Source: a virus. From it: a stretch of DNA of 42,164 nt. A model generated the notes under the pieces. It was not told the origin of the DNA and made no database searches. It worked only from the letters and a program-made list of their open reading frames with translations. The stretch is taken from positions 1 to 42,164 of the IMG/VR virus record IMGVR_UViG_3300045747_000694; one strand, 5' to 3'. The position numbers were made by a program, and so were the translations under genes. Positions 11,639 through 41,320 of the stretch are shown piece after piece; position 1 is the stretch's first letter, and each line of letters opens with the position of its first letter.

Positions 11639-12021
11639 TGGACTCGCAGCTGCGCAAGGCGGGCTACAACGTCCTCATCGGTGGCCTGGCGGACAAGATC
11701 AAGACCAAGGACTTCTCGCCCAAGGCGCTGAAGCAGGGGCGCAAGGTGGAGCACGAGCACACCAGCAGCCCCCGCATCGCCACCGAGATCGCCAAGGACC
11801 ACCTCACGGAGGACCCGATGTACTACGACAAGCTGAAGCTCATCGAGAAGAAGGCGTTCGCAGACGAGCTCATGAAGATCTCGATGAGCTTCAAGGGCTT
11901 CAGCGAAGTGGCCCAGAACTACGCCGGCACCCTGAAGGCTGCGGGTGGCATCAAGAAGGCGAAGAAGCTCCAGGCCGCCGCTGGTGGCGTCTCGAACATC
12001 GTCCCCCGCGTCGGCGGGTAG
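11638..12021 (+). CDS. Small protein (127 aa) with internal AFxDELxKI motif (KKAFADELMKIS)
   Basis: ATG overlaps the upstream TGA. Motif sits at ~residue 75. Gly/Ala-rich C-terminal region. Confidence 0.55.
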   Translation: MDSQLRKAGYNVLIGGLADKIKTKDFSPKALKQGRKVEHEHTSSPRIATEIAKDHLTEDPMYYDKLKLIEKKAFADELMKISMSFKGFSEVAQNYAGTLKAAGGIKKAKKLQAAAGGVSNIVPRVGG

Positions 12022-12030
12022 GAGCACCAC

Positions 12031-12165
12031 ATGATCGTCAAGACCTTCGCCAACGTGAACGACCTCCAGGCCTACCTCACGGCCAACACCATCACGCTCG
12101 CCAAGACCGTCGCCATCTACTTCGACGCGGCCAGCGGACACCACGTCCTCGTCCACACGCCGTAG
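12031..12165 (+). CDS. Very small ORF (44 aa); below the ORF-track threshold
   Basis: GGTAGGAGCACCAC then ATG at 12031. MIVKTFANVNDLQAYLTANTITLAKTVAIYFDAASGHHVLVHTP. Fills an otherwise unexplained 180-nt gap. GC3 is high. Confidence 0.35.
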   Translation: MIVKTFANVNDLQAYLTANTITLAKTVAIYFDAASGHHVLVHTP

Positions 12166-30700: not shown

Positions 30701-31053
30701 TGCAGGAGGTGCCGGGCGGCTCCGTCTTCTGCCGGCACCAGGTGTCGACCGACCTGACCAGCGTCGAGACCCGCGAGCTCTCCATCACCAAGGTGGTGGA
30801 CTTCGCGGCCAAGATCCTGCGCATCGGCATCCGCCGATTCATCGGGACCAGCAACGTCAACCCCCAGCTGCTCGACATGCTGGGCGCCACGGTGCACGCC
30901 ATCCTCAAGTTCCTCGAGGACACCGGCGTCATCAACGGGTCGAACATCAACAACCTGGTCCAGGACAAGGCGAACCCGGACACCATCCTCGTCGACGTCA
31001 CCCTGGACGTTCCGTACCCCTGCAACTACATCCGCCTCACCCTGATGGTGTGA
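27709..31053 (+). CDS. Contractile tail sheath protein (1114 aa) with duplicated internal insertion domains
   Basis: RBS GAAGAAGGAGCCTGAC then ATG. N-terminal MATGELLRPGVEV resembles the sheath N-terminal PGVY segment. C-terminal ~150 aa (…GGGTYILMQEVPGGSVFCRHQVSTD…DVTLDVPYPCNYIRLTLMV) resembles the conserved sheath C-terminal domain. Followed directly by a tube-sized gene. Confidence 0.6.
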   Translation: MATGELLRPGVEVIQQIRKTSPTVLRPTLVPCVVGTAFEVVNVLNSDGTINSKAKWGTYAQVAKAISESAFPDPRGNIAELDFLEDTVRPYLLHGGSLSYLPLTHGSSFLASLHKSSKAVIRTDVFSGVSGLDLNGLVLTLALDLPAIADHSRDIAITFVGSGIGGTGVLTSQQCADQINAAVGELVATVVGAAPSDRVQIASPTYGALSSVTIRPGTANVPLKVAFLTTDGNYTERVEGAGLRGQDDLNNDTVTPWVEFFQGEYYYGAGSAAVATTYRAQCGAIDLETQAFAAAKAAAVTFSGGSPTVALKVGDFVVADGVRLASGEVMKVETSRFKVGTINTLLSTADAQGSYTTKVYDGQQVGTAYDTTPFAPTYCFFVANDIDWRLATGALAAAVTGNGAHSAAAAATVATVATPSGPYSLQGLGLHYTSTIDGVETEGTFTFTAASYLDMDAVVAALGTNIPGVLATNDAGQLRLTSTKTGVLQGIKVWGNSTCRSVLLFALDVADLGEDTLYTANTGLTGKYLTFQFDRNPHTYAVLATSNSLEELVSEINKTVGVTVATISSGFIVLTSPLKGIASRVTILDTGSNKAEDNLGLTAGNTDGTGRPYPDAYLDDALVLHIGSEILRDSVTGYPLDQAYDTGTLYVQYKALRKDVSAAAAQPGVIRVSDTSTLLAVLDPVTEENPLALGMFLTMLNAPTFEVKGLGIDEVTAAAPEGTEVAWARAAALLETEEVYAIAPLTQNEVVQGMWMTHCSVMSAPEQGGERIVFPNKKMPTNKNSSIAASGSAANTTASPNQLVIDMNPSSGLVALGLNPALGFAVAQGVFVEVTVASELRRYSVSSVTGSLVNLRTTFSSSENADAFYSDVFLDVPVVNSAYTLKVRGAALTIPGTNPAMYDYSLMSETVAEANTLFKNRRVYEVFPDTVKLQVSGVEKALPGYYASCAIVGMVAAQPPQQGFTNFPIVGLTGVVGTEKFTKRQLNVMAGGGTYILMQEVPGGSVFCRHQVSTDLTSVETRELSITKVVDFAAKILRIGIRRFIGTSNVNPQLLDMLGATVHAILKFLEDTGVINGSNINNLVQDKANPDTILVDVTLDVPYPCNYIRLTLMV

Positions 31054-31088
31054 GCGGGCTGAACGTCCACTGCAACTGAGGAGCGCAC

Positions 31089-31823
31089 ATGTCCAGCCTC
31101 ACGTCTTGGAATCCCTACTCCCAGAAGGTCGACAACGCGTCGGCCCTCGGAGAGGGCAGGTTCGCCTCCGGCGCGTTCACCATGATCGCCGCCGGTCCCC
31201 CGCGTCTCGCCTCCATCGGCGGCGGCGCGGCGGCAGGGCTCGACCTGTCCAGCGGCACGTCGAACTGGGCCCTGCCCATCGGCGTCGTCCAGAACTTCAA
31301 CCTCGCCCACAACAAGAGCTTCGCCCGCTTCTGGGAGCTCGGCAGTGAGCGGTCGTACTTCATCGCCGGCCGCACGCAGGCGCAGGCCGGGTTCAGCCGG
31401 GTGCTCTACAACGGGCCCTCGCTGCTCCGGATGATGTACGCCTTCTACCAGGACCTCCTGGCGCCCACGACCATCAAGTCGTTCGGGGTGGACGCCAAGA
31501 TCCCGCTCACGGTGGCCAACCAGCACAACGTGAAGATCCCGCCCGGGTTCGAGAACATCTACCTGAACCTGGCCTCGGACCTCTTCTCGCAGCCGTGCGG
31601 CCTCCTCTGCTACATGAAGGACTCCAACGAGACCACCCTCGGGGCCATCTACCTCGAGGAGACGTACCTGCCCTCGCATAGCATCGCGACGGACGCCCAG
31701 GGCGTGGTCATCCAGGAGCAGGTCTCGCTCCAGCCCGAGCGGGCGGTGCCCATCGCCCTCAACAGCCTGGCCCTGGTCGACTCGACCCTGACCCAGGTGC
31801 TCAACGCCGCCACCGGCGCCTAG
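31089..31823 (+). CDS. Tail tube protein candidate (244 aa)
   Basis: RBS ACTGAGGAGCGCAC then ATG. Sits directly after the sheath gene and before a terminator. No motif-level evidence. Confidence 0.45.
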   Translation: MSSLTSWNPYSQKVDNASALGEGRFASGAFTMIAAGPPRLASIGGGAAAGLDLSSGTSNWALPIGVVQNFNLAHNKSFARFWELGSERSYFIAGRTQAQAGFSRVLYNGPSLLRMMYAFYQDLLAPTTIKSFGVDAKIPLTVANQHNVKIPPGFENIYLNLASDLFSQPCGLLCYMKDSNETTLGAIYLEETYLPSHSIATDAQGVVIQEQVSLQPERAVPIALNSLALVDSTLTQVLNAATGA

Positions 31824-31852
31824 CACACCCCAAACGGGTAAGGGCTAAGAAG

Positions 31853-31882
31853 AAGGGCTGGTTCCTCCGGGAGCCGGCCCTT
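31853..31882. terminator. Stem-loop terminator after the tube gene, at the convergence point with the minus-strand island
   Basis: AAGGGCTGG ttcctccgggag CCGGCCCTT: 9-bp stem with one U-G wobble, then CCGCTTTGGGG. Starts 30 nt after the TAG. Confidence 0.5.
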
Positions 31883-31960
31883 CCGCTTTGGGGTGCCAGA
31901 CGCGCCAGGGCTCGATCCTAGAGGGTCAGCGGCCGCCGGCGCCCGGATGTGCCACCGGGC

Positions 31961-32212
31961 CTACTTCGCGTCGCTAGCGACCCGCGGCTTGCGCGCCTTG
32001 GGGGTTCTCGTGAGGGACCTGACGCGGCCCGCCTGCTGCCGGCCCTTGTCGTCCTTCACCAGCTCGAACTCGACCGTGTCGCCCTGCGTCAAGGTCCGGT
32101 ACCCCTCCATCTCGATGTTCGAGTGGTGGACGAACAGGTCCTTGTCGTCCCCGTCGGGGACAACGAAGCCGAACCCCTTGATGGAGCTGAACCACTTGAC
32201 CTTGCCGCGCAC
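31961..32212 (-). CDS. Cold-shock domain protein (83 aa) with basic C-terminal tail
   Basis: GKVKWFSSIKGFGFVVPDGDDKDLFVHHSNIEMEGYRTLTQGDTVEFELVKDDKGRQQAGRVRSL aligns by eye to E. coli CspA (GIVKWFNADKGFGFI...DVFVHFSAI...). No ATG is available. GTG at 32212 is the nearest in-frame start, but the RBS is weak, so the start is uncertain. Confidence 0.65.
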   Translation of the reverse strand: MRGKVKWFSSIKGFGFVVPDGDDKDLFVHHSNIEMEGYRTLTQGDTVEFELVKDDKGRQQAGRVRSLTRTPKARKPRVASDAK

Positions 32213-32256
32213 GAGGCCATTGTCGGTGCGCGGCAGGTCTGTGGGTAGGGGAAAGA

Positions 32257-32853
32257 CTAGGCGCTGGGCGCCGCGAGCGGCATGAAGGTCGGCGGAGTCG
32301 CCCCGTTCCCCGGCAGAGGCACCGGCGGGAGCGTCTGCGCCGCCGCGGCGACCTTGGGCTGCTCCGACGCGCGCCGGCGGGCCACCTCGGCCGCGATGCG
32401 CTCCTTCTCCCCGGTCTGGATGGTGTCGAGGCTGACCGTGCCCTCGTCCTTGCCCCTGATCTCGATGACCGCCGGCTGGCCGTGGGGCAGGATCCTCCGC
32501 AGCGCGTCGAGGTGCTCCACCGCGGCGCTGGCGGCCTTCTCGAGCTTGCCGAGGAGCTCGGCGTTGCCGCAGTCGCCCAGGGTCAGGCGGTTGGTGGCGA
32601 GGTTGGTGAGGATCGTGGCGACCCGGTCCATCTCCCAGACGTAGTGCTCCGGGTCCATCATCGCGACCTTCTCGACCCGGACGTTGCGGGGAGTATCCTT
32701 CCACTCCTGCTTCTTGGGCGAGGGAGCCGCCGCATGCACCGCGTGAGGGGTAACGGCGGGGGCCGACCTCATGGCCCCCTTGCCGGCCACCGACTTCTTC
32801 TCGGCGGCGCGCTGCTGCTTGGTCTTGGTCCGGTCGTACTGTCCACGGGGCAT
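32257..32853 (-). CDS. Hypothetical Lys-rich protein (198 aa)
   Basis: RBS CACAGGAGTCACT then ATG at 32853. N-terminal basic region MPRGQYDRTKTKQQRAAEKK. Confidence 0.6.
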   Translation of the reverse strand: MPRGQYDRTKTKQQRAAEKKSVAGKGAMRSAPAVTPHAVHAAAPSPKKQEWKDTPRNVRVEKVAMMDPEHYVWEMDRVATILTNLATNRLTLGDCGNAELLGKLEKAASAAVEHLDALRRILPHGQPAVIEIRGKDEGTVSLDTIQTGEKERIAAEVARRRASEQPKVAAAAQTLPPVPLPGNGATPPTFMPLAAPSA

Positions 32854-32896
32854 AGTGACTCCTGTGTGTGGGGAAAACTACCACAGGTCTATAACG

Positions 32897-33055
32897 TCAC
32901 TCTGACACCTGGCCCAAGAACTTCTTGATGGCATGAAGGGCGATCTCGCTCTTCGTGACTCGCCTCTTCATGCCCTTCTGCATCTCCCTGCGAAGAGCCT
33001 CGAGCTTCTTCGAGATCTCTCTTGGAAGAGTCACCTCAAGGCGGTACCCCTTCAT
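32897..33055 (-). CDS. Ribbon-helix-helix (CopG/Arc-like) DNA-binding protein (52 aa)
   Basis: MKGYRLEVTLPREISKKLEALRREMQKG...SEIALHAIKKFL shows a beta-strand then two helices. GGAGG lies 9 nt upstream. ATGA-coupled to the upstream gene. An alternative ATG is 15 nt upstream (MEALDMKGY). Confidence 0.6.
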   Translation of the reverse strand: MKGYRLEVTLPREISKKLEALRREMQKGMKRRVTKSEIALHAIKKFLGQVSE

Positions 33056-33348
33056 GTCCAAGGCCTCCATTCCATCATGGCTCCCCACAAGATGCCCTGG
33101 TTGATGGGGAGCCCGAGGTCGAAGTCGGTCTTCGTGAGTACCCGTCCCAGACGCCGCTCGAGACAGAAGAGGCACAATCCGACATGCCTCTTGTGCTTGT
33201 GCGACGTCTCGGTTCCTGGCCACTCCCGCTGGAGATGAGACTTCACCTCTTGGTAGTCCGGGAAGGCCGCGCGCCAGATCGACTCGAGCACCATGAAGGA
33301 CGGAGCAGCTTTGCGGCAGTCGTAGCACTCCAGCCCGCCGTCCTTCAT
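33052..33348 (-). CDS. Zinc-finger protein (98 aa): CxxC, a His-rich block, then CxxC
   Basis: MKDGGLECYDC...SHKHKRHVGLCLFCLERR. ATG at 33348 forms an ATGA overlap with the upstream gene. Its own stop forms an ATGA overlap with the RHH start. Confidence 0.5.
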   Translation of the reverse strand: MKDGGLECYDCRKAAPSFMVLESIWRAAFPDYQEVKSHLQREWPGTETSHKHKRHVGLCLFCLERRLGRVLTKTDFDLGLPINQGILWGAMMEWRPWT

Positions 33349-33641
33349 CCCGGCAGCGCCACGTTGTCCTGGCGCAGCTCCTCGATGCTGTGCTCCCCGA
33401 GCATCCAGAGGACGCCCTGGAGGAAGCCGAACCACATGACGACGAGGTCCGGCTGGCCCACCTCGACGAAGTGGAGGATCTGGTCGCAGATCCAGAGGGC
33501 GTGCTGCTTGATCTTCCCGTAGTCGGCGATGTAGTCGCCCTCGACGAGGAAGTTCGGATCGACCTTCTGGGCGACGAAGCCCTCCCGGGTGAGCTCCTCC
33601 TTGTACTTCTTCACGTCCCTGATGATGAGCTCTTCGGTCAC
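33345..33641 (-). CDS. Hypothetical protein (98 aa), GTG start
   Basis: GTG at 33641 with AAGGAG 8 nt upstream and a GTGA overlap with the upstream stop. Upstream in-frame sequence is RP-rich junk. Confidence 0.5.
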   Translation of the reverse strand: MTEELIIRDVKKYKEELTREGFVAQKVDPNFLVEGDYIADYGKIKQHALWICDQILHFVEVGQPDLVVMWFGFLQGVLWMLGEHSIEELRQDNVALPG

Positions 33642-33802
33642 CGCTTGGTCTCCTTCTTCTCGGGGGCCTTCTGCGTCTGCGCCTTGAGGGCCGAGTCGCT
33701 GGAGCGTCCCTGGGTGGTGCTCGAGTTGCCGGCGTGCTGCTTCGGCTTCATGAGCCACGCCTTCTTGATCTTGCGTCCGACTCCATCGAATCCAGGTGGC
33801 AT
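33638..33802 (-). CDS. Small basic protein (54 aa); not in the ORF track
   Basis: GCTGAGGAGTACGTA then ATG at 33802 (TAATG overlap with the upstream stop). MPPGFDGVGRKIKKAWLMKPKQ... TGA overlaps the GTG of the next gene (GTGA). Confidence 0.4.
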   Translation of the reverse strand: MPPGFDGVGRKIKKAWLMKPKQHAGNSSTTQGRSSDSALKAQTQKAPEKKETKR

Positions 33803-34086
33803 TACGTACTCCTCAGCTTCCTCAAGAGATCACTCGCCTTGATGGCGAACTCATCGGGCCCCATGCCCAAGTCCCTTCCGTCTTCACTGACGTGGTGGCC
33901 CCAGCGAAGAACGCCAGGAGCCTCCGCATCTTCACGAACGAACTGCCCCACGAGCTTGACGATGCTCTTCATGTTGCGGACCTCGGCTCCGAGCTTCTTC
34001 ACGCACTCGTACAGCCAGCCGTCTGCCTGGCCCTTCCTCCCCGCCGGGTGCTTCATACCGCAGTGGGGGCAAGCCTTCTGTGCCAT
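33802..34086 (-). CDS. Small Zn-ribbon protein (94 aa)
   Basis: N-terminal MAQKACPHCGMKHPAG. TGATG-coupled to the upstream gene. Confidence 0.55.
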   Translation of the reverse strand: MAQKACPHCGMKHPAGRKGQADGWLYECVKKLGAEVRNMKSIVKLVGQFVREDAEAPGVLRWGHHVSEDGRDLGMGPDEFAIKASDLLRKLRST

Positions 34087-34541
34087 CAGCGCAAGTCCAG
34101 TCCGGGGTGGATGACCCCGACGAGTCCTCCCCTGGGGCAGGCCGGGCAGATGATGCCGTGTGGGTACTCCTTCGTCGGGTCCTCGTCCTTGAACTCCGTG
34201 TGGCAGCGAGGGCAGATGAGCAGCCTCGGGCTCGGAGGCCCGATGTAGCCCACTTCATCGAAGCCGGAGGTCGGAACCTTCAAGGCTTCGGCTGGCGACA
34301 TCTTCACCACGTCCTTCGAGAGGCAGCGACGGTAGTGGTCGTTCCAGCCGGGGTCGACCTCCCCCTTCTTCGCACCGCTGCGGATGATGAAGTCCGCAGG
34401 CGCCCGCCGCATCTCCGTCGCCAGCACCTCGAGCCAGTCTGCTCGGTCGATGCGTGCCACCAGGCGGTGCTTGTTGGAGATGCGACGGTACCCTTGGGCA
34501 ACGGCATCTTCTGCCTTGAGGTCTGGCATCTCGGTCCACAT
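34086..34541 (-). CDS. Hypothetical protein (151 aa) with C-terminal Zn ribbon
   Basis: GGGAGGTAGGG then ATG at 34541 (MWTEM...). C-terminal LICPRCHTEF...GIICPACPRGG. Confidence 0.55.
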   Translation of the reverse strand: MWTEMPDLKAEDAVAQGYRRISNKHRLVARIDRADWLEVLATEMRRAPADFIIRSGAKKGEVDPGWNDHYRRCLSKDVVKMSPAEALKVPTSGFDEVGYIGPPSPRLLICPRCHTEFKDEDPTKEYPHGIICPACPRGGLVGVIHPGLDLR

Positions 34542-34543
34542 CC

Positions 34544-35161
34544 CTACCTCCCGGCACAGCAGATGGTGCAGGGAGTGGAGATCGTGATGCCGTTGACGAT
34601 CTTGTCGACGACGATCTTGCCGCCGCACTCGGTGCAGGCTGTGGGGGCAGGCTTGCTCTTCTCGCCGTAGCAGTAGGAGCAGGCCCCATCGCTCGTGCGC
34701 GCCCATGTGGCTTGGTCACGACCGCAGTGCTTGCACACCATGATGACCCGCGGAGACTCTCGATGCTCTGCGATGGTCTCTTCGAGCCAGGTTCCCGGGA
34801 CGACGCCCGGGACCTTCACTCGATCGTGGTGGATGGGGCTTGTGACGGTGGCTGCTGGGAAGTTCTTCACCATCCCGCCCCCACCGTCGTGGTCCTTGCA
34901 GAGCCCGAGGTTGACTGCCGGCTTCTCGCAGTACTCGCACCTCATCTGATGGGGACCCGGCCTCTTGCACAGCGGGCAGGACTTGTAGACCGTCCAGTCC
35001 ATCTCCCCCGGGTCTTGGATGCGCTTCCGGAGGACGTTGTAGGCGACGAGGGTGGTGACGATGCGTGCCCACCCATAGACGACCAAGGCCTCCATGGGAG
35101 GCCCGGGGTTCTCGTAGATGTCCTTGATCTCCTTCTCAGAGAGGAGTGCTGGGATCGACAT
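34544..35161 (-). CDS. Cys-rich protein (205 aa) with six CxxC pairs (three predicted Zn-ribbon/treble-clef units)
   Basis: CPLC, CEYC, CKHC, CSYC, CTEC and CTIC(C), spaced as three ribbon units. AAGAAAGGG precedes the ATG at 35161. Confidence 0.6.
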   Translation of the reverse strand: MSIPALLSEKEIKDIYENPGPPMEALVVYGWARIVTTLVAYNVLRKRIQDPGEMDWTVYKSCPLCKRPGPHQMRCEYCEKPAVNLGLCKDHDGGGGMVKNFPAATVTSPIHHDRVKVPGVVPGTWLEETIAEHRESPRVIMVCKHCGRDQATWARTSDGACSYCYGEKSKPAPTACTECGGKIVVDKIVNGITISTPCTICCAGR

Positions 35162-35321
35162 GCGGCCCTTTCTTGGTGGACTCGATGAAGCGGAGGAAGG
35201 CTTCCAACACCTCGGGCTCGAGGAAGATCACGTTGCTCGCCTCCATGCCGTTCTCGGTGGTGAGGATGATGTGGAAGGGGCTGAGCTCGACGTACACGCT
35301 GTCCCCGAGGTAGGTCTTCAT
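35136..35321 (-). CDS. Small hypothetical protein (61 aa)
   Basis: AACAAAGGAGCGCC then ATG at 35321 (ATGA overlap with the upstream stop). 26-nt overlap with the downstream gene start. Confidence 0.45.
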   Translation of the reverse strand: MKTYLGDSVYVELSPFHIILTTENGMEASNVIFLEPEVLEAFLRFIESTKKGPHVDPSTPL

Positions 35322-35605
35322 GGCGCTCCTTTGTTCCTCTTCATGAGCTTCGGCCCCTTCGGCTTGGGTGGCTTCTTCGGCAGCCGAAGCTCCTGGAAGA
35401 GCGACGAGATGATGAAGATGATGGGGAGGAGGTTCGGCGCGATGTACTTCCCGTCCATGATGCAGCCACAGACGAAGCAGTAGGGCGCCGAGGTGACTGT
35501 GTCGTGCACCGTGGTGATGTAGTTGATGACGAGCACCTCGGCGCGGCAGGAGGCGCACGTTCCTTCCTGCGCCCCCTTGCCTGCCCAGACGTCGTAGCGC
35601 CTCAC
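35318..35605 (-). CDS. Membrane-anchored Zn-ribbon protein (95 aa), GTG start
   Basis: GTGA overlap with the upstream stop. CASC...CFVCGC, then hydrophobic LLPIIFIISSLF, then a basic tail KKPPKPKGPKLMKRNK. Confidence 0.5.
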   Translation of the reverse strand: MRRYDVWAGKGAQEGTCASCRAEVLVINYITTVHDTVTSAPYCFVCGCIMDGKYIAPNLLPIIFIISSLFQELRLPKKPPKPKGPKLMKRNKGAP

Positions 35606-35943
35606 AGGGCGAGCTCCGTCTGCATCGTCTTGGGCTTGCGCTTCAGGCACATCTTGCAGTCGACCCGGGCCCAGTCCTCGGTGAGGCGGCTGGCGGGCAC
35701 CATCTTGTCGGAGCAGATGGGGCAGTTCATGATGCCCCAGTGCATTCTCCGAGGGATGAGCCGCATCGCCTCTTCCTTCGTCGGGGTGTTGTGCCCTACC
35801 TCCGAGCCGAGGACGGAGTAGTGGAAGTTCCTGAGCTGCTTCGCGGCTTGCTGAAGGACGGTGTTGGCCGCTCCCTCCAGCATCTGCTCGTCTCGTTCGT
35901 TCCTGGCCTCGACCAGGATGCGCAGCGTGATGACGCGCTTCAT
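35602..35943 (-). CDS. Zn-ribbon protein (113 aa)
   Basis: CTAGAAAGGGAGTAG then ATG at 35943. CPICSDK...CKMC. Confidence 0.6.
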   Translation of the reverse strand: MKRVITLRILVEARNERDEQMLEGAANTVLQQAAKQLRNFHYSVLGSEVGHNTPTKEEAMRLIPRRMHWGIMNCPICSDKMVPASRLTEDWARVDCKMCLKRKPKTMQTELAL

Positions 35944-35954
35944 CTACTCCCTTT

Positions 35955-36266
35955 CTAGGTTGGTGGGTGGAGCACGAGGCGGTACCCGAGCTCCTTCGCT
36001 CGAGCACGCACCTCGGCAACCTGCTCCTCCCTGGTCTTCTCCGCGGTTGGCGGCGGAGCTGCGGGCATCCAGGCATCAGGGAGGTTCTTCCTCAGCGCCC
36101 GGCTGTCGAGTGCCACGAAGTGGAGGGCTAGGGCTTTCGCCGCCTCCTTGAAGGAGTCGTCGAGGTCCATGTCCTGACCAGACTCGTAGTTGAACTCGAC
36201 ACCCAAGAACCGAAGGATGCGCTCTGCGTTGAGCCGCGCATCCCGGAGAACCTCGTTGATGTTCAT
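35955..36266 (-). CDS. Hypothetical protein (103 aa)
   Basis: ATG at 36266 (MNINEVLRDARL...). Upstream in-frame sequence is junk. RBS is weak. Confidence 0.45.
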   Translation of the reverse strand: MNINEVLRDARLNAERILRFLGVEFNYESGQDMDLDDSFKEAAKALALHFVALDSRALRKNLPDAWMPAAPPPTAEKTREEQVAEVRARAKELGYRLVLHPPT

Positions 36267-36268
36267 CG

Positions 36269-36595
36269 CTACATCTCGCTCTCTTCTGCAACGTCGTTCA
36301 GGCTGTTGATCTCCGACTCCAAGCTGAGCATGGTGTCGCAGACAACAGGGACCTCCACGGTGAGGTCCTGGTTGAAGCGCATCTTCATCTCGTCCTTCAT
36401 CGACTTGAAGTAGTCGACTCTCTTCTCGTACGCGAAGGTGGGCACAGTATAGACGCCACACCGGTTCCCGTTGGGCTCTCTCACTTCGATGATGCGAACG
36501 TCCCGGAGCTTGCGGAGCACCCGCACCCGAGCCTCGAGCCTCTTCTTCTCTTCGCGAAGGAGGGCGAGCTCCTTCACCAGCGTCGTCTTGGCCAT
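36269..36595 (-). CDS. Hypothetical coiled-coil protein (108 aa)
   Basis: ATG at 36595 overlaps the upstream TGA (TGATG). MAKTTLVKELALLREEKKRLEARVRVLRKL. Confidence 0.55.
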   Translation of the reverse strand: MAKTTLVKELALLREEKKRLEARVRVLRKLRDVRIIEVREPNGNRCGVYTVPTFAYEKRVDYFKSMKDEMKMRFNQDLTVEVPVVCDTMLSLESEINSLNDVAEESEM

Positions 36596-37152
36596 CACGC
36601 CTCCGTGCGGGGCATAGCGAGGTACGCCTCGTGGAGCTTCTTCATGTACTCGGTGGCCTTCTCGTAGCTCCAGGCGTGGATCATCTTGCCCTCGGCCGCC
36701 ATGGTGACCTGCTCGGTGGCTCCGAAGAGCGAGCCAGCCGTGGCGTCGATGATGGACTCCGTCCACTCGAGATGGATGACGCGCTTGCGCCAGCCGACCT
36801 TGATGACGCCCATCTTCGTGGTGACGAGGAGCCACGGCAGGTGCGGGCAGCACGTGTCCCCGCAGTACCCGTTGGGGATCTCCTTCACGAAGATGGCGCC
36901 GATGTTGGCGTCGCGGAAGATCGCGTCGGCCCTCTCGAGCCACTCCTTCTTGTAGCCCTGGTACTTGGGATCGACGCGACGCATCTCGACGTGGAGCGCC
37001 GTGAGGAGGTTGCGGACAGCCTCCTCGATGGCGCGGTCGTCGTTCTTCGTGAGTGGCCGCGGGTAGGCCAGCCGGAGGTCGAGGCCGATGTGCCCATCCT
37101 CCCCTACCTGCTCGCTGCGGTAGACCCTCTTGTACTCCTTCTCGTCGATCAC
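36595..37152 (-). CDS. Hypothetical protein (185 aa) with CGDTCCPH cluster, GTG start
   Basis: GTG at 37152 with GGAGGGAGG upstream and a GTGA overlap with the upstream stop. No family recognised. Confidence 0.5.
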   Translation of the reverse strand: MIDEKEYKRVYRSEQVGEDGHIGLDLRLAYPRPLTKNDDRAIEEAVRNLLTALHVEMRRVDPKYQGYKKEWLERADAIFRDANIGAIFVKEIPNGYCGDTCCPHLPWLLVTTKMGVIKVGWRKRVIHLEWTESIIDATAGSLFGATEQVTMAAEGKMIHAWSYEKATEYMKKLHEAYLAMPRTEA

Positions 37153-37328
37153 CTTGCCTCCCTCCGCAGGAGAGGAGCCTTCTCCAACATCCAAGGGGTG
37201 AAGCACTCGGTGTGCAGGAGGAACGCCTTCTTCGTGCTGGGAGTCTGCACCTCGAGCATGCTGTCTCCATCCTTGATGGCGCTCTTGCACTCCGCGCACT
37301 TGAAGCTCTTCTTGGTCTTTCTGGCCAT
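37149..37328 (-). CDS. Small Zn-ribbon protein (59 aa)
   Basis: CTGAGGAGCTG then ATG at 37328 (TGATG overlap with the VWA gene stop). FKCAECK...HTEC. Confidence 0.55.
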   Translation of the reverse strand: MARKTKKSFKCAECKSAIKDGDSMLEVQTPSTKKAFLLHTECFTPWMLEKAPLLRREAR

Positions 37329-39055
37329 CAGCTCCTCAGGTAGTTGGTGAAGGAGGTCCTCACGAGATCGGTCATCTCGAAGAAGAGGTCCTCCGGGTTG
37401 TCTCCGACGCGCACCCAGCGCTTCGGGCCCAGCATCCTGTCCGCCTCTGAAGACGGCAGGGTGTTGCCCAGCAGCACGGTGCTGACTCGGATGCGCCGGC
37501 GAGAGGCATCGACCACGTCCTGCCTCACCTGCTCGCGCAGGCTGATGTTCGACTGGGCCCCGATGGTCTGCGGGTTGCCGTCCGAGACGATGAGCAGGTG
37601 CTTCATCCTCCCAGGCATCTGGGCCAGCTGCCGCGCAGCGACAGGAACGGCGATGTGAAGCGGGGTGAGCCCCCACGCCTCGGGGATGGTCTTCTTCGGC
37701 AGGTAGCCCTTGGTCGGGTCCTCGAAGTCGATGATGACTGTCCCTCCGGTGCTGTCGCCAGAGAAGCCCCAGACCTTCACGTTCGAGAAGGGGAACTTGG
37801 TAGCCACCGCAGCCACCTTCGCTGCCCTCGAGACGGTCATCCAGAGCTGCTGCATGGAGCCGCTCATGTCGAGCAGGATGATGAGGTCGAAGCCCTTGGC
37901 CGGGCGGTCCTCGAGGAAGAACTCCATGTCGCCCTGACCGTGGAGGAACTCGATGTAGCGCTCGGGGTCGAGGTGGGATCCCTCTTCGGCCCTCGCACGG
38001 GTGCGCTGGTCGATGAGCTTGATGAAGATGCGGCGCAGCTCCGAGGCGAGACGGGAGTCCCTCTCGCTCAGCCTGAACTCCTCGGCGTCATGGGTGGCCA
38101 CGTGGATGATCTTCGTCCTGTGCATCCCCTTCAAGAGGTCCTGGTCCGGCGGGATCTCGTGCAGCTTGGAGGAGAGGCGGCGGATGAGCGTCTGCACCTC
38201 CTCCATGCCTGAGCTGAGGAGCTGGGTGAGCGCATCATCCGACTCGAGGCCCATCGCAGTGCGCGCGACGTGCCTGGTCTTCTCCGTGTCCCTGTCGAGA
38301 GCTCGAGGGGACTCGGTGTCGAACAGCAGGGCAGACCCCCGAGATTGGAGGGCCGCCTTCTCCATCTGAACGACTGCCCGCTCGTTGCTGTAGGGCTTCC
38401 TCTTCGTCATCCTCCTCACCCCACCAGCCTGCGGCACGCCGGGCTCCTGGAGCACCTCCTCATCTGCGAGGAGGCCGATGACGTGGTCGAGGATGATGCG
38501 GGTGGCCACGAGCACAGTGGGGTAGCTGGCACGCTTCACCAGTTCGAGCGCTCGCAGGATGACGGGGTCGAAGCGGTCCCAGTTGCTGCCGGGGACCACG
38601 GCTGCGTCGATGCCGAGGGCGATGACCCTCATGGTGAGGTTGCCCTTCGTCCCGTCGGCGAGGAGGCGCTCCCACCGAGTCTTCAGGCGCTCGGCACTGC
38701 CCGGGTACACCATCTCGTGGAGAGAGTGCACCCGAACGTCATCGACGGCGTTGGCGAGCATGTCGATGAAGTCCTCCTGGAGGGAGGTGGGGGACAGCCC
38801 CTTCAGCTTCCTCTCCTCGAGGTAGAGCTCCACGAAGTGCGCTCGAGCGTAGAGGTCCGTGCCGAAGAGCACGTGCGTCCACTCGTGCTTGTGGATGACG
38901 TCCACCTCCTGGTCCTCGATGGGGACAGAGAGGTAGGTCTCGGTGTCCGTCCGACCAGGAGGATCAGCGGCGAAGAGCGTGAGCTCCTTCCCCGTGAGGC
39001 CGCAGAAGATCTTGTGGACCTTCCGCATGATGTCGACCCGGTCCTTGTGGCTCAC
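37328..39055 (-). CDS. von Willebrand factor A (VWA) domain protein, CobT-like partner of the AAA+ ATPase (575 aa)
   Basis: GTG at 39055 in a GTGA overlap with the AAA gene stop (the in-frame ATG at IMRKVH is an alternative). C-terminal FDLIILLDMSGSMQQ (MIDAS DxSGS) ... LLIVSDGNPQ. Confidence 0.65.
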   Translation of the reverse strand: MSHKDRVDIMRKVHKIFCGLTGKELTLFAADPPGRTDTETYLSVPIEDQEVDVIHKHEWTHVLFGTDLYARAHFVELYLEERKLKGLSPTSLQEDFIDMLANAVDDVRVHSLHEMVYPGSAERLKTRWERLLADGTKGNLTMRVIALGIDAAVVPGSNWDRFDPVILRALELVKRASYPTVLVATRIILDHVIGLLADEEVLQEPGVPQAGGVRRMTKRKPYSNERAVVQMEKAALQSRGSALLFDTESPRALDRDTEKTRHVARTAMGLESDDALTQLLSSGMEEVQTLIRRLSSKLHEIPPDQDLLKGMHRTKIIHVATHDAEEFRLSERDSRLASELRRIFIKLIDQRTRARAEEGSHLDPERYIEFLHGQGDMEFFLEDRPAKGFDLIILLDMSGSMQQLWMTVSRAAKVAAVATKFPFSNVKVWGFSGDSTGGTVIIDFEDPTKGYLPKKTIPEAWGLTPLHIAVPVAARQLAQMPGRMKHLLIVSDGNPQTIGAQSNISLREQVRQDVVDASRRRIRVSTVLLGNTLPSSEADRMLGPKRWVRVGDNPEDLFFEMTDLVRTSFTNYLRS

Positions 39056-40008
39056 GTGAGCCCCACTCGAGCGGCGAGGTCGGCGTGCGTCCCGTTCTTG
39101 GTGATGTCCTGGATCCGCTCGATGACGAGCTTCCGGTCCTCGTCGCCGAACTTCTGGCAGAGGAGGAACATCATGTCGAACCAGCCAACGCGGGGGAGCA
39201 GGTTGATGAGCTCCACCAGGTCGCGCGTGGAGAGGGAGTAGCTGGTGGCGCCCTGCCGGGTCTGGTTGGCGATGTTCACCAGCATCTCCAGGCCCTGCTG
39301 CTGGATGGGGTCTCCCATCGAGCCCGTCTTCCCGTAGCCGGTCATCTCCATGAGGATCTCCTTCTCCGCCTCGGGGGGCGGGTAGGGGATGTCGATGCAG
39401 GTGAAGCGCGAGCGCAGGTCGTCGTTCAGCTCGTTGGTCCCGCCGTACACGGTGGGGTTCTGCGTGGCGATGACCCAGAGCTTGGCAGTGGGCGAGAGCT
39501 CGAGCCTGGTGGAGAGCTCTGGGATCTCCAGCTTGCGCCTGAAGTCGGTGAAGCTGTTCACCAGCTTCTGCTGCTGGTTGGGCAGCGAGTTCAGCTCCTC
39601 GAGCACGAGCATGGCGAAGCCGCACTCGTTGGCCACCTTGATGGCATTGGCGACGGTGCCGAGGATGAAGGGGGTCTCGCCGCTCTTGGCGATGAAGCCT
39701 CCCTTGAAGTGCCGCTCCCGCGTCTCCTCCGAGCAGTCCATGGAGAGGTAGGGGATGCCGAGGGTCTCGGCCAGGTACGACGCCAGCAGGGACTTCCCCG
39801 TCCCCTTCGGTCCGTTGAGGAGGAGGTTGGGAGGGTCCCAGGTACCCGAACCGGTAGGTACCTGACTCATCTTGGTGATGAAGGGGATGAGCTCGAAGAC
39901 GTCCACGAACTTCAAGCTCTTCCTCAAGACGAGCGAGGCAGGTACCATGTACCGGACTTCGATGCCGTTGACGCGGAGGATGCCCTCTCCAATTGCTTCG
40001 AGAGTCAT
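39052..40008 (-). CDS. MoxR-type AAA+ ATPase, CobS-like (318 aa)
   Basis: Walker A LLLNGPKGTGKSLLASYLAE. Walker B AMLVLEELN. MoxR-like length and layout. First gene of the minus-strand operon, downstream of the divergent promoter region. Confidence 0.75.
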   Translation of the reverse strand: MTLEAIGEGILRVNGIEVRYMVPASLVLRKSLKFVDVFELIPFITKMSQVPTGSGTWDPPNLLLNGPKGTGKSLLASYLAETLGIPYLSMDCSEETRERHFKGGFIAKSGETPFILGTVANAIKVANECGFAMLVLEELNSLPNQQQKLVNSFTDFRRKLEIPELSTRLELSPTAKLWVIATQNPTVYGGTNELNDDLRSRFTCIDIPYPPPEAEKEILMEMTGYGKTGSMGDPIQQQGLEMLVNIANQTRQGATSYSLSTRDLVELINLLPRVGWFDMMFLLCQKFGDEDRKLVIERIQDITKNGTHADLAARVGLT

Positions 40009-40077
40009 AAGGCCTCAGATAGTGTAGGGTTGTAGTCCTTCAAGGTCTTATCCCCTCAACGCGGACCCTTTGGACCG
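40009..40077. promoter_or_regulatory. Divergent intergenic region, relatively AT-rich; likely promoters for the minus-strand island and the + strand genes
   Basis: 69-nt gap between divergent starts (40008 - / 40078 +). TAGTGTAGGGTTGTAG and TTCAAGGTCTTATCCCCT stand out against ~67% GC coding sequence. Confidence 0.4.
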
Positions 40078-40401
40078 ATGCCCCAAGACCAAGAACTGAC
40101 CATCGACAAGCTCTCCGCCGGTGATCGTCCGTCGATCCTTGCTCTGGGCGTGGCCGCCGCAGAGTCCTTGAAGCAGGTCAGTCTCGCCGTCTTCATGGTC
40201 GATGTGCTGGGCCGGGTCCAGATCCTTCCGCCGACCTCCGTCATGGTGAAGCTCCCAGCTCGCGTGAAGGACGCTGAGCTGGACTCCCTCGACGAGACCT
40301 CGGCCATCCACATCATGACTGCGCAGGGAGACGGCGATGACTCCATCTTGGAGTACCTTCGCCACCGAAAGGGGCTGGCGGATGGCGACGCGCATCTGTG
40401 A
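40078..40401 (+). CDS. Hypothetical protein (107 aa)
   Basis: ATG at 40078. High GC3. Confidence 0.5.
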   Translation: MPQDQELTIDKLSAGDRPSILALGVAAAESLKQVSLAVFMVDVLGRVQILPPTSVMVKLPARVKDAELDSLDETSAIHIMTAQGDGDDSILEYLRHRKGLADGDAHL

Positions 40402-40639
40402 CACCGAGCCGTGCGACAAGATGAAGATGGCGCTGAGCCTCTTCTTCCGCACCGAGGAGCTGGAGAACTACAACCCCGAGGAGGGGCTGCTCATCGCCAC
40501 GGTGGAGAAGAAGAAGGGGCAGGCCCCGGTGGACCTCCACTTCAAGTACTGCCCGTTCTGCGGAACCAGAGCGGCCCTCGGCCTGGTGGATGGGCTCGAG
40601 GAAGAGTACGAGCTTCGAGGCTCGAGGCAGACGGCGTAG
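40382..40639 (+). CDS. Small Cys-containing protein (85 aa), CPFCG Zn-ribbon half-site
   Basis: GAAAGGGGCTGGCGG then ATG at 40382. Overlaps the upstream gene by 20 nt in the +1 frame. Confidence 0.5.
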   Translation: MATRICDTEPCDKMKMALSLFFRTEELENYNPEEGLLIATVEKKKGQAPVDLHFKYCPFCGTRAALGLVDGLEEEYELRGSRQTA

Positions 40640-40642
40640 CAG

Positions 40643-41320
40643 ATGCCCATCCCGGTCTCTCTCCCCTCCGGTGCGTTGGCCATCGACGACACCATCTCGG
40701 CAACCGCCGAGGCGTTCGTCGCTGCCATCGGACAGGTCTTCCGGTCAGGGACGTCTGGGGCGACACTCAACACCCCGCCCACGCTCTTCCCCGACGGCAC
40801 CAACCCCGCCATCGATCCGGGGAGCGGGCAGCCCTACCTCGCCTCGCTCGTCATCAGCACTCCCGAGCAGCAGCTCTTCTTCCGCCAGCTGGCGGTCGCC
40901 ATCGCTTCCGCCATCGGCTCTGGGGGCGGAGGTGGGCCACCTCCCATCACCGTCCAGCTCGTCCAGTTCGATGCGCTGTGCCCCTCGACTGTAGCCGTGG
41001 GCGACCTGGTTCGTGTGGCGAGCGCTGGTCACGTCGCCAAGACCGACATCACCGACATCGCGAGCCTCCCCGCCATCGGCGTCGTGACGGCCAAGGCGAC
41101 GACCACGAGCTGCACGGTGCAGACGCATGGCATCGTGGCGGGGCTCTTCACGGGGCTCACTCCCGGCCTTCTCTACTACGTGGCTCGCGACAGCACGCTC
41201 GGGCCCCTCCCAGTTCCCACCTCCGGCGAGACGCTGTTCTGGCAGGCGGTGGGTGTCGCACTCGACCCCACAAGCCTGGTCTTCACGCCGAGCCTGACCC
41301 TGTCGAGAGTCGTAGGGTAA
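40643..41320 (+). CDS. Hypothetical protein (225 aa), possible fibre tip or adhesin
   Basis: ATG 3 nt after the upstream TAG. Gly/Pro-rich linker GSGGGGGPPP separates two halves. Confidence 0.5.
   Translation: MPIPVSLPSGALAIDDTISATAEAFVAAIGQVFRSGTSGATLNTPPTLFPDGTNPAIDPGSGQPYLASLVISTPEQQLFFRQLAVAIASAIGSGGGGGPPPITVQLVQFDALCPSTVAVGDLVRVASAGHVAKTDITDIASLPAIGVVTAKATTTSCTVQTHGIVAGLFTGLTPGLLYYVARDSTLGPLPVPTSGETLFWQAVGVALDPTSLVFTPSLTLSRVVG

Follow-up and report, generated by a model that had tools for sequence, protein, structure and literature searches.

An opposite-strand block of 18 genes between the tail genes of an uncultivated phage: a probable modular accessory operon at a conserved site

Background

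Hyperplastic or accessory clusters of small, tightly packed and rapidly exchanged early genes are found in T4-like and other large phages, and the immI region of P22 (mnt-arc-ant) places ribbon-helix-helix (RHH) regulators among the late genes. The viral cobST-like pair, of the MoxR/VWA class, occurs widely in tailed phages and in archaeal tailed viruses, and T4-like cyanophages have it among their core genes (PMC8651126); annotations frequently label the viral cobT a peptidase (Liu et al. 2021, PMC8651126). NorQ/NorD, CbbQ/CbbO and RavA/ViaA are bacterial remodelling chaperones composed of a MoxR AAA+ and a VWA protein (PMC9976466, PMC13036017), and the mechanism of the NorQ/NorD reference system has been described (PMC13036017). 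Jumbo phages of group 2.2 carry a MoxR/metallopeptidase-vWA pair (Iyer et al. 2021, PMC7824862).

The window considered here is a whole stretch of viral DNA of 42,164 nucleotides, in which a group of minus-strand genes headed by a pair of this kind lies among tail genes. A preliminary description, made from the sequence alone, took the group for a single early or host-takeover cassette, or a moron. The reading preferred here, with a probability of about 60%, is that the genes form a modular non-structural accessory operon made up of three modules and occupying an ancient fixed slot in uncultivated contractile-tailed phages, a clade whose contigs run to 100-210 kb.

Gene organization and boundaries of the block

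Minus-strand coding is unbroken from 40008 to 31961 and comprises 18 genes, the number given in the preliminary description, on which a GC3 frame plot, gene calls made independently and conservation at the protein level all agree. In the frame plot one frame lies at a GC3 of 0.8-1.0 everywhere in the block and switches at every predicted junction, and the GC3 values of all 18 genes range from 0.78 to 0.96. An identical public contig, analysed with an independent gene caller, gave the same first 11 genes, with sizes from g1 onward of 318, 575, 59, 185, 108, 103, 113, 95, 61 and 205 aa, and so on. The block and its boundaries contain the following features:

40009-40077, no strand assigned: divergent intergenic region, 69 nt between the start codons of g1 (minus) and d1 (plus)
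39052-40008, minus strand: g1, MoxR-class AAA+ ATPase (CobS-like/NorQ-like), 318 aa (Pfam AAA_5, phrog_249)
37328-39055, minus strand: g2, VWA/MIDAS protein with an N-terminal HExxH domain (CobT-like/NorD-like), 575 aa (Pfam VWA_CoxE)
33052-37328, minus strand: g15 to g3, hypervariable array of 13 unrelated small genes of 54-205 aa (gene model, Cys motifs)
32897-33070, minus strand: g16, probable RHH DNA-binding protein, 52-57 aa, with its start at 33055 or 33070
32257-32853, minus strand: g17, clade-specific protein, 198 aa (alignment of 14 homologues)
31961-32212, minus strand: g18, cold-shock protein (CSP), 83 aa (Pfam CSD 2.8e-23, phrog_729)
31853-31882, no strand assigned: GC-rich hairpin in the gap where the tail-tube gene (plus) and the CSP gene (minus) converge, from sequence and folding

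Overlaps of 1 or 4 nt are found at eleven of the 17 junctions, as first described: g1/g2, g2/g3, g3/g4, g4/g5, g7/g8 and g8/g9 in the first half, and g11/g12, g12/g13, g13/g14, g14/g15 and g15/g16 in the second. With the same start-picking rule, only 6 of 26 junctions overlap in the plus-strand structural genes of the window, so the block is packed more tightly than its surroundings. The obligatory co-translation that had been deduced from these overlaps is an over-reading, because most genes of the block, including most of the overlapping ones, keep a GGAGG-like Shine-Dalgarno sequence of their own. The tail-cluster setting is confirmed on both sides: the 1114-aa protein encoded upstream matches the annotated tail sheaths of Bacillus phage G, Rhodococcus phage E3 and Mycobacterium phage Tonenili, and in one relative a 1949-aa Peptidase_S74 fibre-type protein is encoded on the fibre side of the block, past the d genes. 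These observations support the block as a non-structural unit that is transcribed opposite to the structural genes on both sides.

The hairpin at 31853-31882, previously given as a terminator, is real and is probably a bidirectional intrinsic terminator. It has a 14-bp stem and a folding energy of -36 kcal/mol (z = -3.2) on the plus strand and of -23.7 kcal/mol (z = -0.9) on the minus strand, and each of the 11 related loci tested has a strong GC-rich hairpin, of differing sequence, in its corresponding convergent gap. At the other end, the divergent gap that had been described as a promoter exists, but no sigma-70-like promoter was recognised in it. It shares conserved blocks with relatives, for example CTTATSCC about 25-30 nt upstream of d1, a motif that occurs only once within the window; in one relative the gap is just 19 nt long. 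The gap is presumed to be the promoter region for one or both of the units that diverge from it.

The AAA+/VWA pair

The AAA+/VWA pair belongs to the already described viral cobST-like MoxR/VWA class, and its closest solved relative is NorQ/NorD. The assignment made in the preliminary description was upheld for both members, g1 matching Pfam AAA_5 at 3.2e-16 (60 bits, cut-off 22) and g2 matching Pfam VWA_CoxE with 28.7 bits (cut-off 26.4). In addition, g1 matches phrog_249, the phage CobS family annotated as 'porphyrin biosynthesis', at 1.3e-21, is about 26% identical to cyanophage CobS, and has sequence matches in the PDB to midasin AAA, NorQ and CbbQ. Its Walker A, Walker B (EE), sensor 1 N184, R201 and R262 are conserved; Walker B reads E-E, not D-E, in all members of the g1 family but one. 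In 17 homologues of g2, H57-E58-x-x-H61 and the MIDAS residues D396-x-S398-x-S400, T464 and D492 are invariant. The HExxH domain may have a role in catalysis, and its presence fits the frequent annotation of viral cobT as a peptidase. [quoted passage not shown] A tblastn search of 50,697 phage records with g2 gave no match. The dN/dS values of the pair, 0.12-0.18, show much stronger conservation than those of the small genes.

The foremost alternative, itself unlikely, is a tail or virion assembly operon, in which the MoxR/VWA-HExxH pair would be a chaperone and co-chaperone with a processing peptidase for a tail or other virion protein, would owe its position beside the sheath and tube genes to that role, and would leave the remaining genes as incidental cargo. 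Wherever tail genes are recognisable in a relative with the pair, it adjoins the tube and sheath genes and converges with them, an adjacency which could point to a structural-assembly rather than an 'accessory' role; yet it lies on the strand opposite all structural genes and is co-operonic with a regulator and a cold-shock protein. [quoted passage not shown] 2021, PMC7824862), and ATV p618 (MoxR) and p892 (VWA) interact and are implicated in tail development, in keeping with the fold match between g2 and ATV ORF892. The invariance of HExxH in the g2 homologues also speaks for this reading, but a fold search with this domain gave no assignment to a protease fold. Furthermore, a search that recovered a positive control of 52% identity found no copy of the pair in six of the clade's large contigs, indicating that tails are built there without it; on a tube tree that carries no support values, the six fall in at least three places. 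One of them has GroES at the slot, which is in favour of assembly. The absence of the pair from these relatives means either that it is dispensable or that the same job is done in another way.

Conservation and origin of the site

An opposite-strand block of varying content is found in more than 20 related phage contigs, always between the tube and the fibre-side genes. In its shortest forms (L008, L011 and L014) the slot holds only the CSP, a g17-like gene and the RHH gene, the last being first beside the divergent gap. The order AAA, VWA, an RHH-like gene of about 64 aa, a g17-like gene and CSP is found in L017, L018/L019 and L022, with an additional 64-aa gene past CSP in L022. Two extra genes are present in the slot of L021, and L020 possesses a block of 18 genes that only partly matches the gene set of the window. 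Among 20 VWA-bearing viral loci, nine show AAA, VWA, 0.8-6.3 kb of variable DNA and then the convergent tube and sheath genes, and the arrangement is kept in distant relatives whose VWA proteins are 23-36% identical. Other cargo at the slot in some relatives includes GroES, a major-vault-protein-like gene and a phosphatase. Since site, terminator, trio and AAA/VWA are shared with relatives at 23-36% VWA identity, the arrangement is ancestral to a large clade.

The preliminary description, in which a cassette or moron was acquired as a unit, inserted into the late region and obligately co-translated, can be credited with little probability. It accounts for an orientation that opposes the flanking structural genes, for the bounding terminator and intergenic gap, for the many small proteins without known function and for the tighter packing. 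However, the site and both end modules are common to a deep clade, most genes have their own ribosome-binding site, and relatives manage with 0 or 2 middle genes or with a different set of 14, so the 18 do not form a single co-dependent unit. The GC and GC3 of the block are like those of the rest of the genome, and no flanking repeats, integrase or transposase were found at it. Dispersal of the same genes elsewhere together with a contiguous tail module in relatives would have spoken against the preliminary description, but no relative examined has a contiguous module, and the shortest slots keep 2-3 opposite-strand genes. No feature of the block points to a mobile unit or a defence system, and the reading as one island is largely refuted. 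The block is probably a modular accessory operon of an ordinary kind, at a site beside the tail genes that is old and conserved, rather than an island of recent insertion.

Host takeover had been suggested for the block as a whole, whereas the published proposals for the cobST-like class to which they are assigned are virion assembly or cobalamin metabolism. The latter, in which g1 and g2 would be true CobS/CobT cobaltochelatase subunits that work with a host CobN and raise the cobalamin supply during infection, was proposed by Liu et al. 2021 for the cobST pairs widespread in tailed viruses (PMC8651126). It agrees with the matches of g1 to phrog_249 and cyanophage CobS and with the fold matches of g2 to viral proteins annotated as CobT, but is quite improbable for this locus: g2 has no match to Pfam CobT or CobT_C at E < 0.01, an NCBIfam search yielded no CobS or CobT equivalog for either protein, the nearest solved structures are those of NorQ/NorD and not of a chelatase, CobT is not known to require an invariant HExxH, and neither CobN nor any other cobalamin gene is present in the window.

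The small-gene array and the RHH-g17-CSP trio

The lineage-specific, fluctuating part of the block is only its 13-gene middle, g3 to g15. Of these genes, g3, g4, g11 and g13 are missing from the relative whose sheath is 90% identical; the relative at 84% is without g3, g4, g6, g11 and g15 and possesses other genes instead. No paralogy was found among the 13 proteins, and neither intergenic promoters nor stem-loop repeats able to drive shuffling were found in the array. At least two CxxC pairs are present in g7, g8, g10 (six), g11 and g15, one CxxC together with a distal Cys/His pair in g3 and g12, and a single CxxxCC cluster in g4. The proteins with such motifs, predicted to serve in zinc binding, thus total 7-8, fewer than the nine or more CxxC/zinc-ribbon proteins previously counted. 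Matches to PHROG families of unknown function were obtained for g7, g9, g11, g14 and g15; the g11 family is present in 145 isolate phages, and its gene in Vibrio phage K478b adjoins a recombination exonuclease. The dN/dS values of the shared small genes are below 1, at 0.06 to 0.76, in 17 of 19 comparisons. Together, these results support the small genes as a fast-evolving accessory array.

A counter-defence or conflict island, with MoxR/VWA and variable zinc-ribbon proteins as an arsenal against host immunity or competing phages, would suit the rapid gene turnover, the elevated dN/dS in g8, g13 and g17, the unrelated small proteins of unknown function typical of anti-defence loci and the occurrence of MoxR-vWA modules in prokaryotic conflict systems (PMC7159879). 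It is highly improbable, however: apart from general similarity to P-loop and CSD proteins, a PADLOC search gave no significant match, none of the known anti-defence families was detected, and the dN/dS of the pair is unlike that of an arms-race component.

The last three genes, RHH, g17 and CSP, are present at the site in nearly all close relatives. The cold-shock protein of the preliminary description is well founded: g18 consists of a cold-shock domain and a basic C-terminal tail and scores 82 bits against Pfam CSD (cut-off 27), while its CspD/CspE-like matches in NCBIfam fall under the equivalog cut-offs. In an alignment of 14 homologues, g17 shows an invariant N-terminal MPRGxYDR followed by a stretch of basic residues, a helical middle part that varies, and a tail rich in Pro and Ala with a conserved Phe at the end; it has no match in PDB or Pfam, and only 5 homologues were found in 5.8 billion proteins. 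The RHH regulator was sustained in part, g16 being a probable, weakly supported RHH DNA-binding protein: its family profile weakly matches the CopG regulator 7by2 in the PDB (E = 0.0022), whereas its own match to Pfam RHH_1 is below threshold; RHH_1, DUF2274 and DUF3924 match some members of the family.

Proposed organization of the operon

The block, as a probable modular accessory operon, occupies the slot that has the tail-tube gene on one side and the fibre-side genes d1-d5 on the other. It would be transcribed leftwards, putatively as one transcript whose promoter position and early or middle timing of expression are likewise predicted, from the 40009-40077 region to the conserved hairpin, which would end the sheath/tube transcript too. 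The module next to the presumed promoter is the cobST-like pair; by analogy with NorQ/NorD, g2 may dock on a g1 hexamer and be pulled or twisted, which would remodel a bound target protein, and a metal-dependent or proteolytic step may be involved. In the middle module, 13 unrelated small genes, about half of them with putative zinc-binding Cys motifs, are quickly gained, lost and replaced, as happens in hyperplastic early or accessory regions elsewhere among large phages, and their products would most likely target the host or rival phages. The promoter-distal trio is the conserved core of the slot; its members are probably a regulator of transcription, a basic protein specific to the clade and, in the CSP, an RNA chaperone or antiterminator.

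Comparison with known systems

The pair shares with viral cobST the adjacent overlapping genes, the AAA_5 ATPase of about 320 aa followed by a protein of about 575 aa with a C-terminal VWA/MIDAS, the membership of g1 in phrog_249 and the full-length alignment of the g2 model with viral CobT-like proteins. It differs in its very low identity to the members from isolate phages, in leaving the Pfam CobT families unmatched, and in its place at the head of an operon that runs on the strand opposite to the neighbouring tail sheath and tube genes. The NorQ/NorD group provides the best solved-structure relatives of g1 and g2, and the ATPase motifs and MIDAS are intact here as there; in contrast, the locus offers no nitric-oxide reductase or Rubisco context, g2 carries an N-terminal domain with an invariant HExxH, and the g1 Walker B is E-E in most members. 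Like the jumbo-phage pair and ATV p618/p892, the locus has a MoxR ATPase beside a vWA protein with an N-terminal HExxH-type domain, and it resembles the former also in belonging to a large phage and lying near virion genes, with ATV ORF892 as a fold match. On the other hand, the search of phage records detected no sequence-level link to those phages, the protease fold here is putative, and the pair appears dispensable in part of the clade.

The middle genes resemble hyperplastic regions in being many, short and unrelated, in their stop/start overlaps, in a content that differs between near-identical genomes and in sharing some families with distant phages. The array differs in lying in a conserved operon between two conserved modules, in a structural and not an early region, and in having no intergenic promoter or stem-loop repeats for shuffling. 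Finally, the block recalls P22 immI by its small RHH gene at or near a divergent junction within a structural cluster, but it shows no antirepressor or sign of lysogeny control, its RHH assignment is weak, and in the window the RHH gene lies 7 kb from the divergent gap.

Gene organization and phage setting

Because the G+C content of the window is about 65%, raw ORF lists are crowded with spurious frames. The gene model was derived from third-position GC content (GC3), and the start nearest to each upstream stop was taken. From 40008 down to 31961 a single minus-strand frame has a GC3 of about 0.8-1.0 everywhere, and the favoured frame changes 17 times. This block comprises 18 genes (g1 to g18), all with GC3 values of 0.78-0.96 that match those of the adjacent structural genes, and the first eleven recur exactly in a public gene annotation, made independently, of an identical contig of 6.3 kb. 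Among homologues of g3 to g15 in two sister phages, dN/dS was below 1 in 17 of 19 comparisons (0.06-0.76); these are therefore translated genes, and frame artefacts are excluded. Frames, independent gene call and dN/dS thus bear out the 18-gene minus-strand block of the preliminary description.

The block and its boundaries (window coordinates)
31961-40008, minus strand: block of genes g1 (AAA+ ATPase) to g18 (cold-shock protein)
31853-31882: GC-rich 14-bp hairpin in the convergent gap after the tube gene; left boundary of the block
40009-40077: 69-nt gap separating divergent start codons; right boundary of the block

The eleven overlapping junctions described earlier were found again, 11 of the 17 junctions in the block being overlaps of 1 or 4 nt. 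By the same rule only 6 of 26 junctions overlap among the plus-strand structural genes of the window, so that the block is unusually compact. Translational coupling of its genes is plausible. The obligatory co-translation once read from these overlaps does not follow, however, since most of the genes retain a GGAGG-type ribosome-binding site of their own. A non-coding RNA search gave no Rfam family across the entire window. ARAGORN placed a 92-nt tRNA-Arg(TCT) at 9621-9712 on the minus strand, within a plus-strand ORF of high GC3 (8909/9071-10198), but this is probably a false positive because Rfam finds no tRNA at that position.

The phage is an uncultivated one and has no nucleotide match among 50,697 records of isolate phages. 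Upstream of the block lies a protein of 1114 amino acids whose C-terminal part matches the annotated sheaths of Bacillus phage G, Rhodococcus phage E3 and Mycobacterium phage Tonenili. The gene after it (244 aa) encodes the best-conserved protein of the clade, which is regarded as the tail tube. Past the plus-strand d genes, on the fibre side of the block, one sister phage encodes a 1949-aa protein with a Peptidase_S74 domain. With these sheath matches, the tube gene and the Peptidase_S74 protein of the sister, the earlier placement of the block within a tail gene cluster, with fibre-like genes beyond, proves right. The sister contigs are 196-198 kb long. No host could be assigned via prophage copies, as a relative of the tube protein occurs in no bacterial or archaeal genome.

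Several further features of this setting were recorded. The sheath gene (27709-31053, plus strand) is very long, and isolate-phage sheaths match only the C-terminal third of its 1114-aa product; in several relatives (L009, L012, L014, L084-L096) the match is broken into two segments, which suggests a sheath with variable inserted domains. Locus L017 has an additional 200-aa gene between tube and sheath. Laminin_G_3 (concanavalin-like lectin) domains are found in two large proteins of the structural region (13601-15409 and 23217-24713, plus strand), which are probably receptor-binding or baseplate components. The small conserved gene d2 (40337-40639, plus strand), past the divergent gap, encodes a Cx4C...CxxC pattern; judged from relatives, its translation truly begins at an internal Met near 40382 (MATRICD...), and the overlap with d1 is then shorter. 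Near the left end of the window there is a second opposite-strand gene pair (923-1411 and 1483-2199, minus strand), with high GC3 in both genes and an HTH_17/MerR-like DNA-binding domain in the product of 1483-2199; opposite-strand regulatory inserts may be recurrent in this genome.

Boundaries of the block

The hairpin at 31853-31882 folds with -36 kcal/mol (z = -3.2) as plus-strand RNA and with -23.7 kcal/mol (z = -0.9) as minus-strand RNA. In each of the 11 relatives examined, this position is taken by a hairpin of comparable strength and different sequence. The adjoining T-tract is weak on the plus strand of the window (CGCTTTGG); that of the minus strand is better (TTCTTCTT). On good comparative evidence the element is a putative bidirectional intrinsic terminator. 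The terminator proposed here earlier is accordingly retained as a stable GC-rich hairpin of conserved position, with its terminator role predicted.

The other boundary had been described as a divergent promoter gap. The 69-nt gap is real, but no sigma-70-like promoter was found in it or elsewhere in 31000-41000. Short blocks within the gap are conserved with relatives, including CTTATSCC upstream of d1. This motif occurs once in the window and was rejected as a general phage promoter motif on that ground.

The small proteins of the middle

Cysteine motifs are common among the products of g3 to g15. Two CxxC pairs each are present in g7, g8, g11 and g15, and six in g10; g3 and g12 have a single CxxC with a distal Cys/His pair, and g4 has a CxxxCC cluster. 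The double knuckle pattern of zinc-ribbon type is seen in g7, g8, g11 and g15, three times over in g10, and in part in g3 and g12. The count is therefore 7-8 rather than the "at least nine" CxxC/zinc-ribbon proteins first reported, and no zinc-ribbon profile of Pfam matches any of these Cys-motif proteins. A lineage-specific expansion of one zinc-ribbon family was rejected, as an all-against-all BLASTP comparison revealed no paralogy.

For these proteins, searches of Pfam, PHROGs, NCBIfam and PADLOC returned either nothing or families of unknown function, in agreement with the first impression that they have no obvious known function. Five of them were assigned to PHROG families of unknown function. 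The g11 family is found in 145 isolate phages, and its member in Vibrio phage K478b adjoins a recombination exonuclease; this distribution and neighbour would fit early or middle, non-structural roles. Against the PADLOC models of anti-phage defence systems the block gave only weak P-loop matches (IetA, 8.6e-5 over 50 residues) and generic CSD similarity, and it does not qualify as a known defence system. Between the window and locus L004, dS is uneven along the block, at 0.08 for g8 (35318-35605) and 0.2-0.5 for its neighbours, a pattern that suggests that sister phages have recently recombined within the small-gene array.

The AAA+ ATPase and the VWA protein

The product of g1 matches Pfam AAA_5 at 60 bits (cut-off 22) over the full model (1-139), and its best sequence relatives in the PDB are the midasin AAA domains, NorQ and CbbQ. 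Across 17 homologues the Walker A residues G66, G69, G71 and K72 are invariant, as are N184 (sensor 1), R201 (arginine finger) and R262 (sensor 2). The Walker B pair E137-E138 (codons 39595-39600) departs from the common D-E: 16 of the 17 family members have E-E, and D-E occurs solely in the L006 copy. By its profile match and these residues g1 is predicted to be a MoxR-class AAA+ ATPase with intact catalytic motifs. It also matches phrog_249, the phage "CobS/porphyrin biosynthesis" family, at 1.3e-21.

The product of g2 matches Pfam VWA_CoxE at 28.7 against a cut-off of 26.4, and its MIDAS residues (D396-M-S398-G-S400, T464 and D492) do not vary among 17 homologues. In fold comparison of its AlphaFold model (pLDDT 80) the best match is the VWA domain of NorD in the 2026 NorQD complexes (E = 3.6e-9, TM(target) 0.61), and the matches that span the whole protein are to proteins of phages and archaeal viruses with VWA or CobT-like annotations, ATV ORF892 among them. 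The GTG start of g2 overlaps the stop of g1 (GTGA), and the two genes are adjacent in all 20 VWA-bearing viral loci. With a complete MIDAS and an adjoining ATPase gene, g2 is identified as the VWA/MIDAS partner of the MoxR ATPase. Near its N-terminus H57, E58 and H61, forming an HExxH motif, are invariant in the 17 homologues. In an AF2 model of residues 1-196 (pLDDT 88, pTM 0.86), strands 26-29 and 41-44 precede the helix 51-63 that bears the motif, and the N-terminal domain is thus modelled with an HExxH helix after a small beta-sheet and may be a zincin-type metallopeptidase.

The pair belongs to the viral cobST-like class because of its matches in sequence and fold (phrog_249, NorQ/NorD, viral CobT-like proteins, ATV ORF892); the likeness of g2 to viral proteins named CobT-like is by fold only. 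With respect to a cobaltochelatase CobS/CobT (EC 6.6.1.2), no match of g2 to Pfam CobT or CobT_C was found at E < 0.01, no CobS or CobT equivalog of NCBIfam was assigned to g1 or g2, and CobN is absent from the window. A tblastn search of isolate phages with g2 gave zero hits.

The conserved distal genes

The last gene, g18, clearly encodes a cold-shock domain protein (Pfam CSD, 82 bits against 27), with the RNP1/RNP2-like motifs KGFGFV and LFVHH and a basic tail; it lies below the NCBIfam equivalog cut-offs and for this reason is not assignable specifically to CspA, CspD or CspE. Alone, g16 is sub-threshold against RHH_1 (E = 0.086). Within its family RHH_1 is matched by 3 of 13 members (best 0.0087) and DUF2274 or DUF3924 by others; the family profile finds the CopG regulator 7by2 in the PDB (E = 0.0022), and the family alignment is compatible with a strand-helix-helix pattern. 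From these similarities g16 is probably a ribbon-helix-helix (RHH) protein. Of the identities first given, those of the cold-shock protein and the MoxR-AAA/VWA pair hold, and that of the RHH regulator is probable, its own RHH_1 match being below threshold. Between g16 and g18 lies g17, whose N-terminus, MPRGxYDR, is invariant and whose tail is rich in Pro and Ala. A profile search of the PDB with g17 found nothing, and just five homologues, all from the same clade, occur among 5.8 billion proteins; by this distribution g17 is specific to the clade, and no known protein resembles it.

The slot in related phages

Loci were gathered via the tube protein, the VWA protein with its homologues and the ATPase, and all proteins of the window were then mapped onto them. 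In every relative an opposite-strand block lies between the tube gene and the homologues of d1, d2 and d3, and its content varies in a structured way. Almost every member of the closer clade (tube 71-79% identical) has the RHH, g17 and cold-shock genes. They form the entire block, 1.1-1.5 kb, in L008, L011 and L014, and RHH and g17 alone form that of L007. The AAA/VWA pair is found in the lineage of the window, L006, L017, L018/L019, L021 and L022, and also in a far more distant group (tube 55-63%, VWA 23-31%), where it is again convergent with tube and sheath.

A profile-derived ATPase scan recovered 37 viral contigs, including the L006 copy (52% identical) as positive control, and none of the six contigs without the pair at the slot, some of which are 177-209 kb long. 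Relatives without the pair at the slot include contigs 3300034196_000067, 3300044959_000131 and 3300017774_005745. The six occupy at least three places on a neighbour-joining tree of the tube protein, which has no support values and gives no more than a rough idea of how often the pair was lost. Given its presence in the distant group, the ATPase scan and the scattered pair-less contigs, the pair appears to be ancestral and repeatedly lost.

The stretch from the VWA gene to the RHH gene is empty of genes in L017, L018 and L022; it contains two in L021 and thirteen in the window. The sister with the 84% identical sheath has fourteen, which overlap the set of the window only partially, and that with the 90% identical sheath is without g3, g4, g11 and g13. 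Other cargo was seen in the slot. In L006 (12184-14907, minus strand; IMGVR_UViG_3300046490_000164) its variable part encodes a protein of 908 aa that combines the shoulder domain of the major vault protein (PF11978, 8e-23) with a vault repeat (PF17795, 1e-10); such an MVP-like protein is unusual for a phage. The pair-less relative L009 (11186-11473, minus strand; IMGVR_UViG_3300012683_000008) has in its slot a Cpn10/GroES gene (1.7e-33), between the g17-like and cold-shock genes. In L021 a HAD/PNKP-type phosphatase (11638-12126) follows the VWA gene.

Origin and possible role of the block

The comparison with related phages, proposed at the outset, thus finds the block at the slot in every relative, with only individual middle genes varying. 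By this comparative anatomy the block occupies an old slot, its two end modules conserved and its middle exchangeable. The "island or moron" of the preliminary description fails for the whole block, as the slot and both end modules are clade-wide, and survives only for the 13-gene middle. Neither direct or inverted repeats above chance nor an integrase or transposase were found, and the composition is native (GC, and GC3 of 0.78-0.96 as in neighbouring genes); a mobile element is rejected on these grounds, and a single recent insertion is excluded by them together with the clade-wide slot and end modules.

We favour an accessory or regulatory operon that is built of modules and sits in an ancient slot, with a probability of about 0.6; the figure refers to the architecture, and the functions are those we infer. 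The main rival, considered unlikely, is a role of the AAA/VWA pair in tail or virion assembly. Synteny and precedent speak for it: virion assembly and proteolytic processing were proposed for the MoxR/metallopeptidase-vWA pair of jumbo phages, ATV p618/p892 being invoked as precedent (Iyer et al. 2021, PMC7824862). Counting against it are the strand on which the pair lies, its companions in the operon and its repeated loss. More doubtful still is a site for chaperones beside the tail genes, at which MoxR/VWA-HExxH would use ATP to mature or process a virion (tail) protein; pair-less lineages, at similarly long odds, would rely on different folding or encapsulating factors encoded there (GroES in L009), and the major-vault-protein-like gene beside the retained pair of L006 would, just as improbably, belong to the same picture. 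If this were true, the clade would offer a genetic context in which to settle the role of viral cobST, virion assembly or cobalamin synthesis.

On its own the block is nothing out of the ordinary for a large phage genome; all its components are of known kinds, and its clade is a new one with poor annotation. Conserved flanks with exchangeable cargo are clearly exemplified by the slot, which could be mined for host-interaction genes. The viral cobST-like class is widespread in tailed viruses, its cobT frequently carries a peptidase annotation, and hijacking of host CobN has been proposed for it (Liu et al. 2021, PMC8651126). The function of such pairs is contested in the literature between cobalamin supply and virion assembly. 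Since the pair is kept beside sheath and tube over deep divergence, with an invariant HExxH, yet has been lost in several lineages, this clade provides a usable natural experiment on the viral cobST-like pair.
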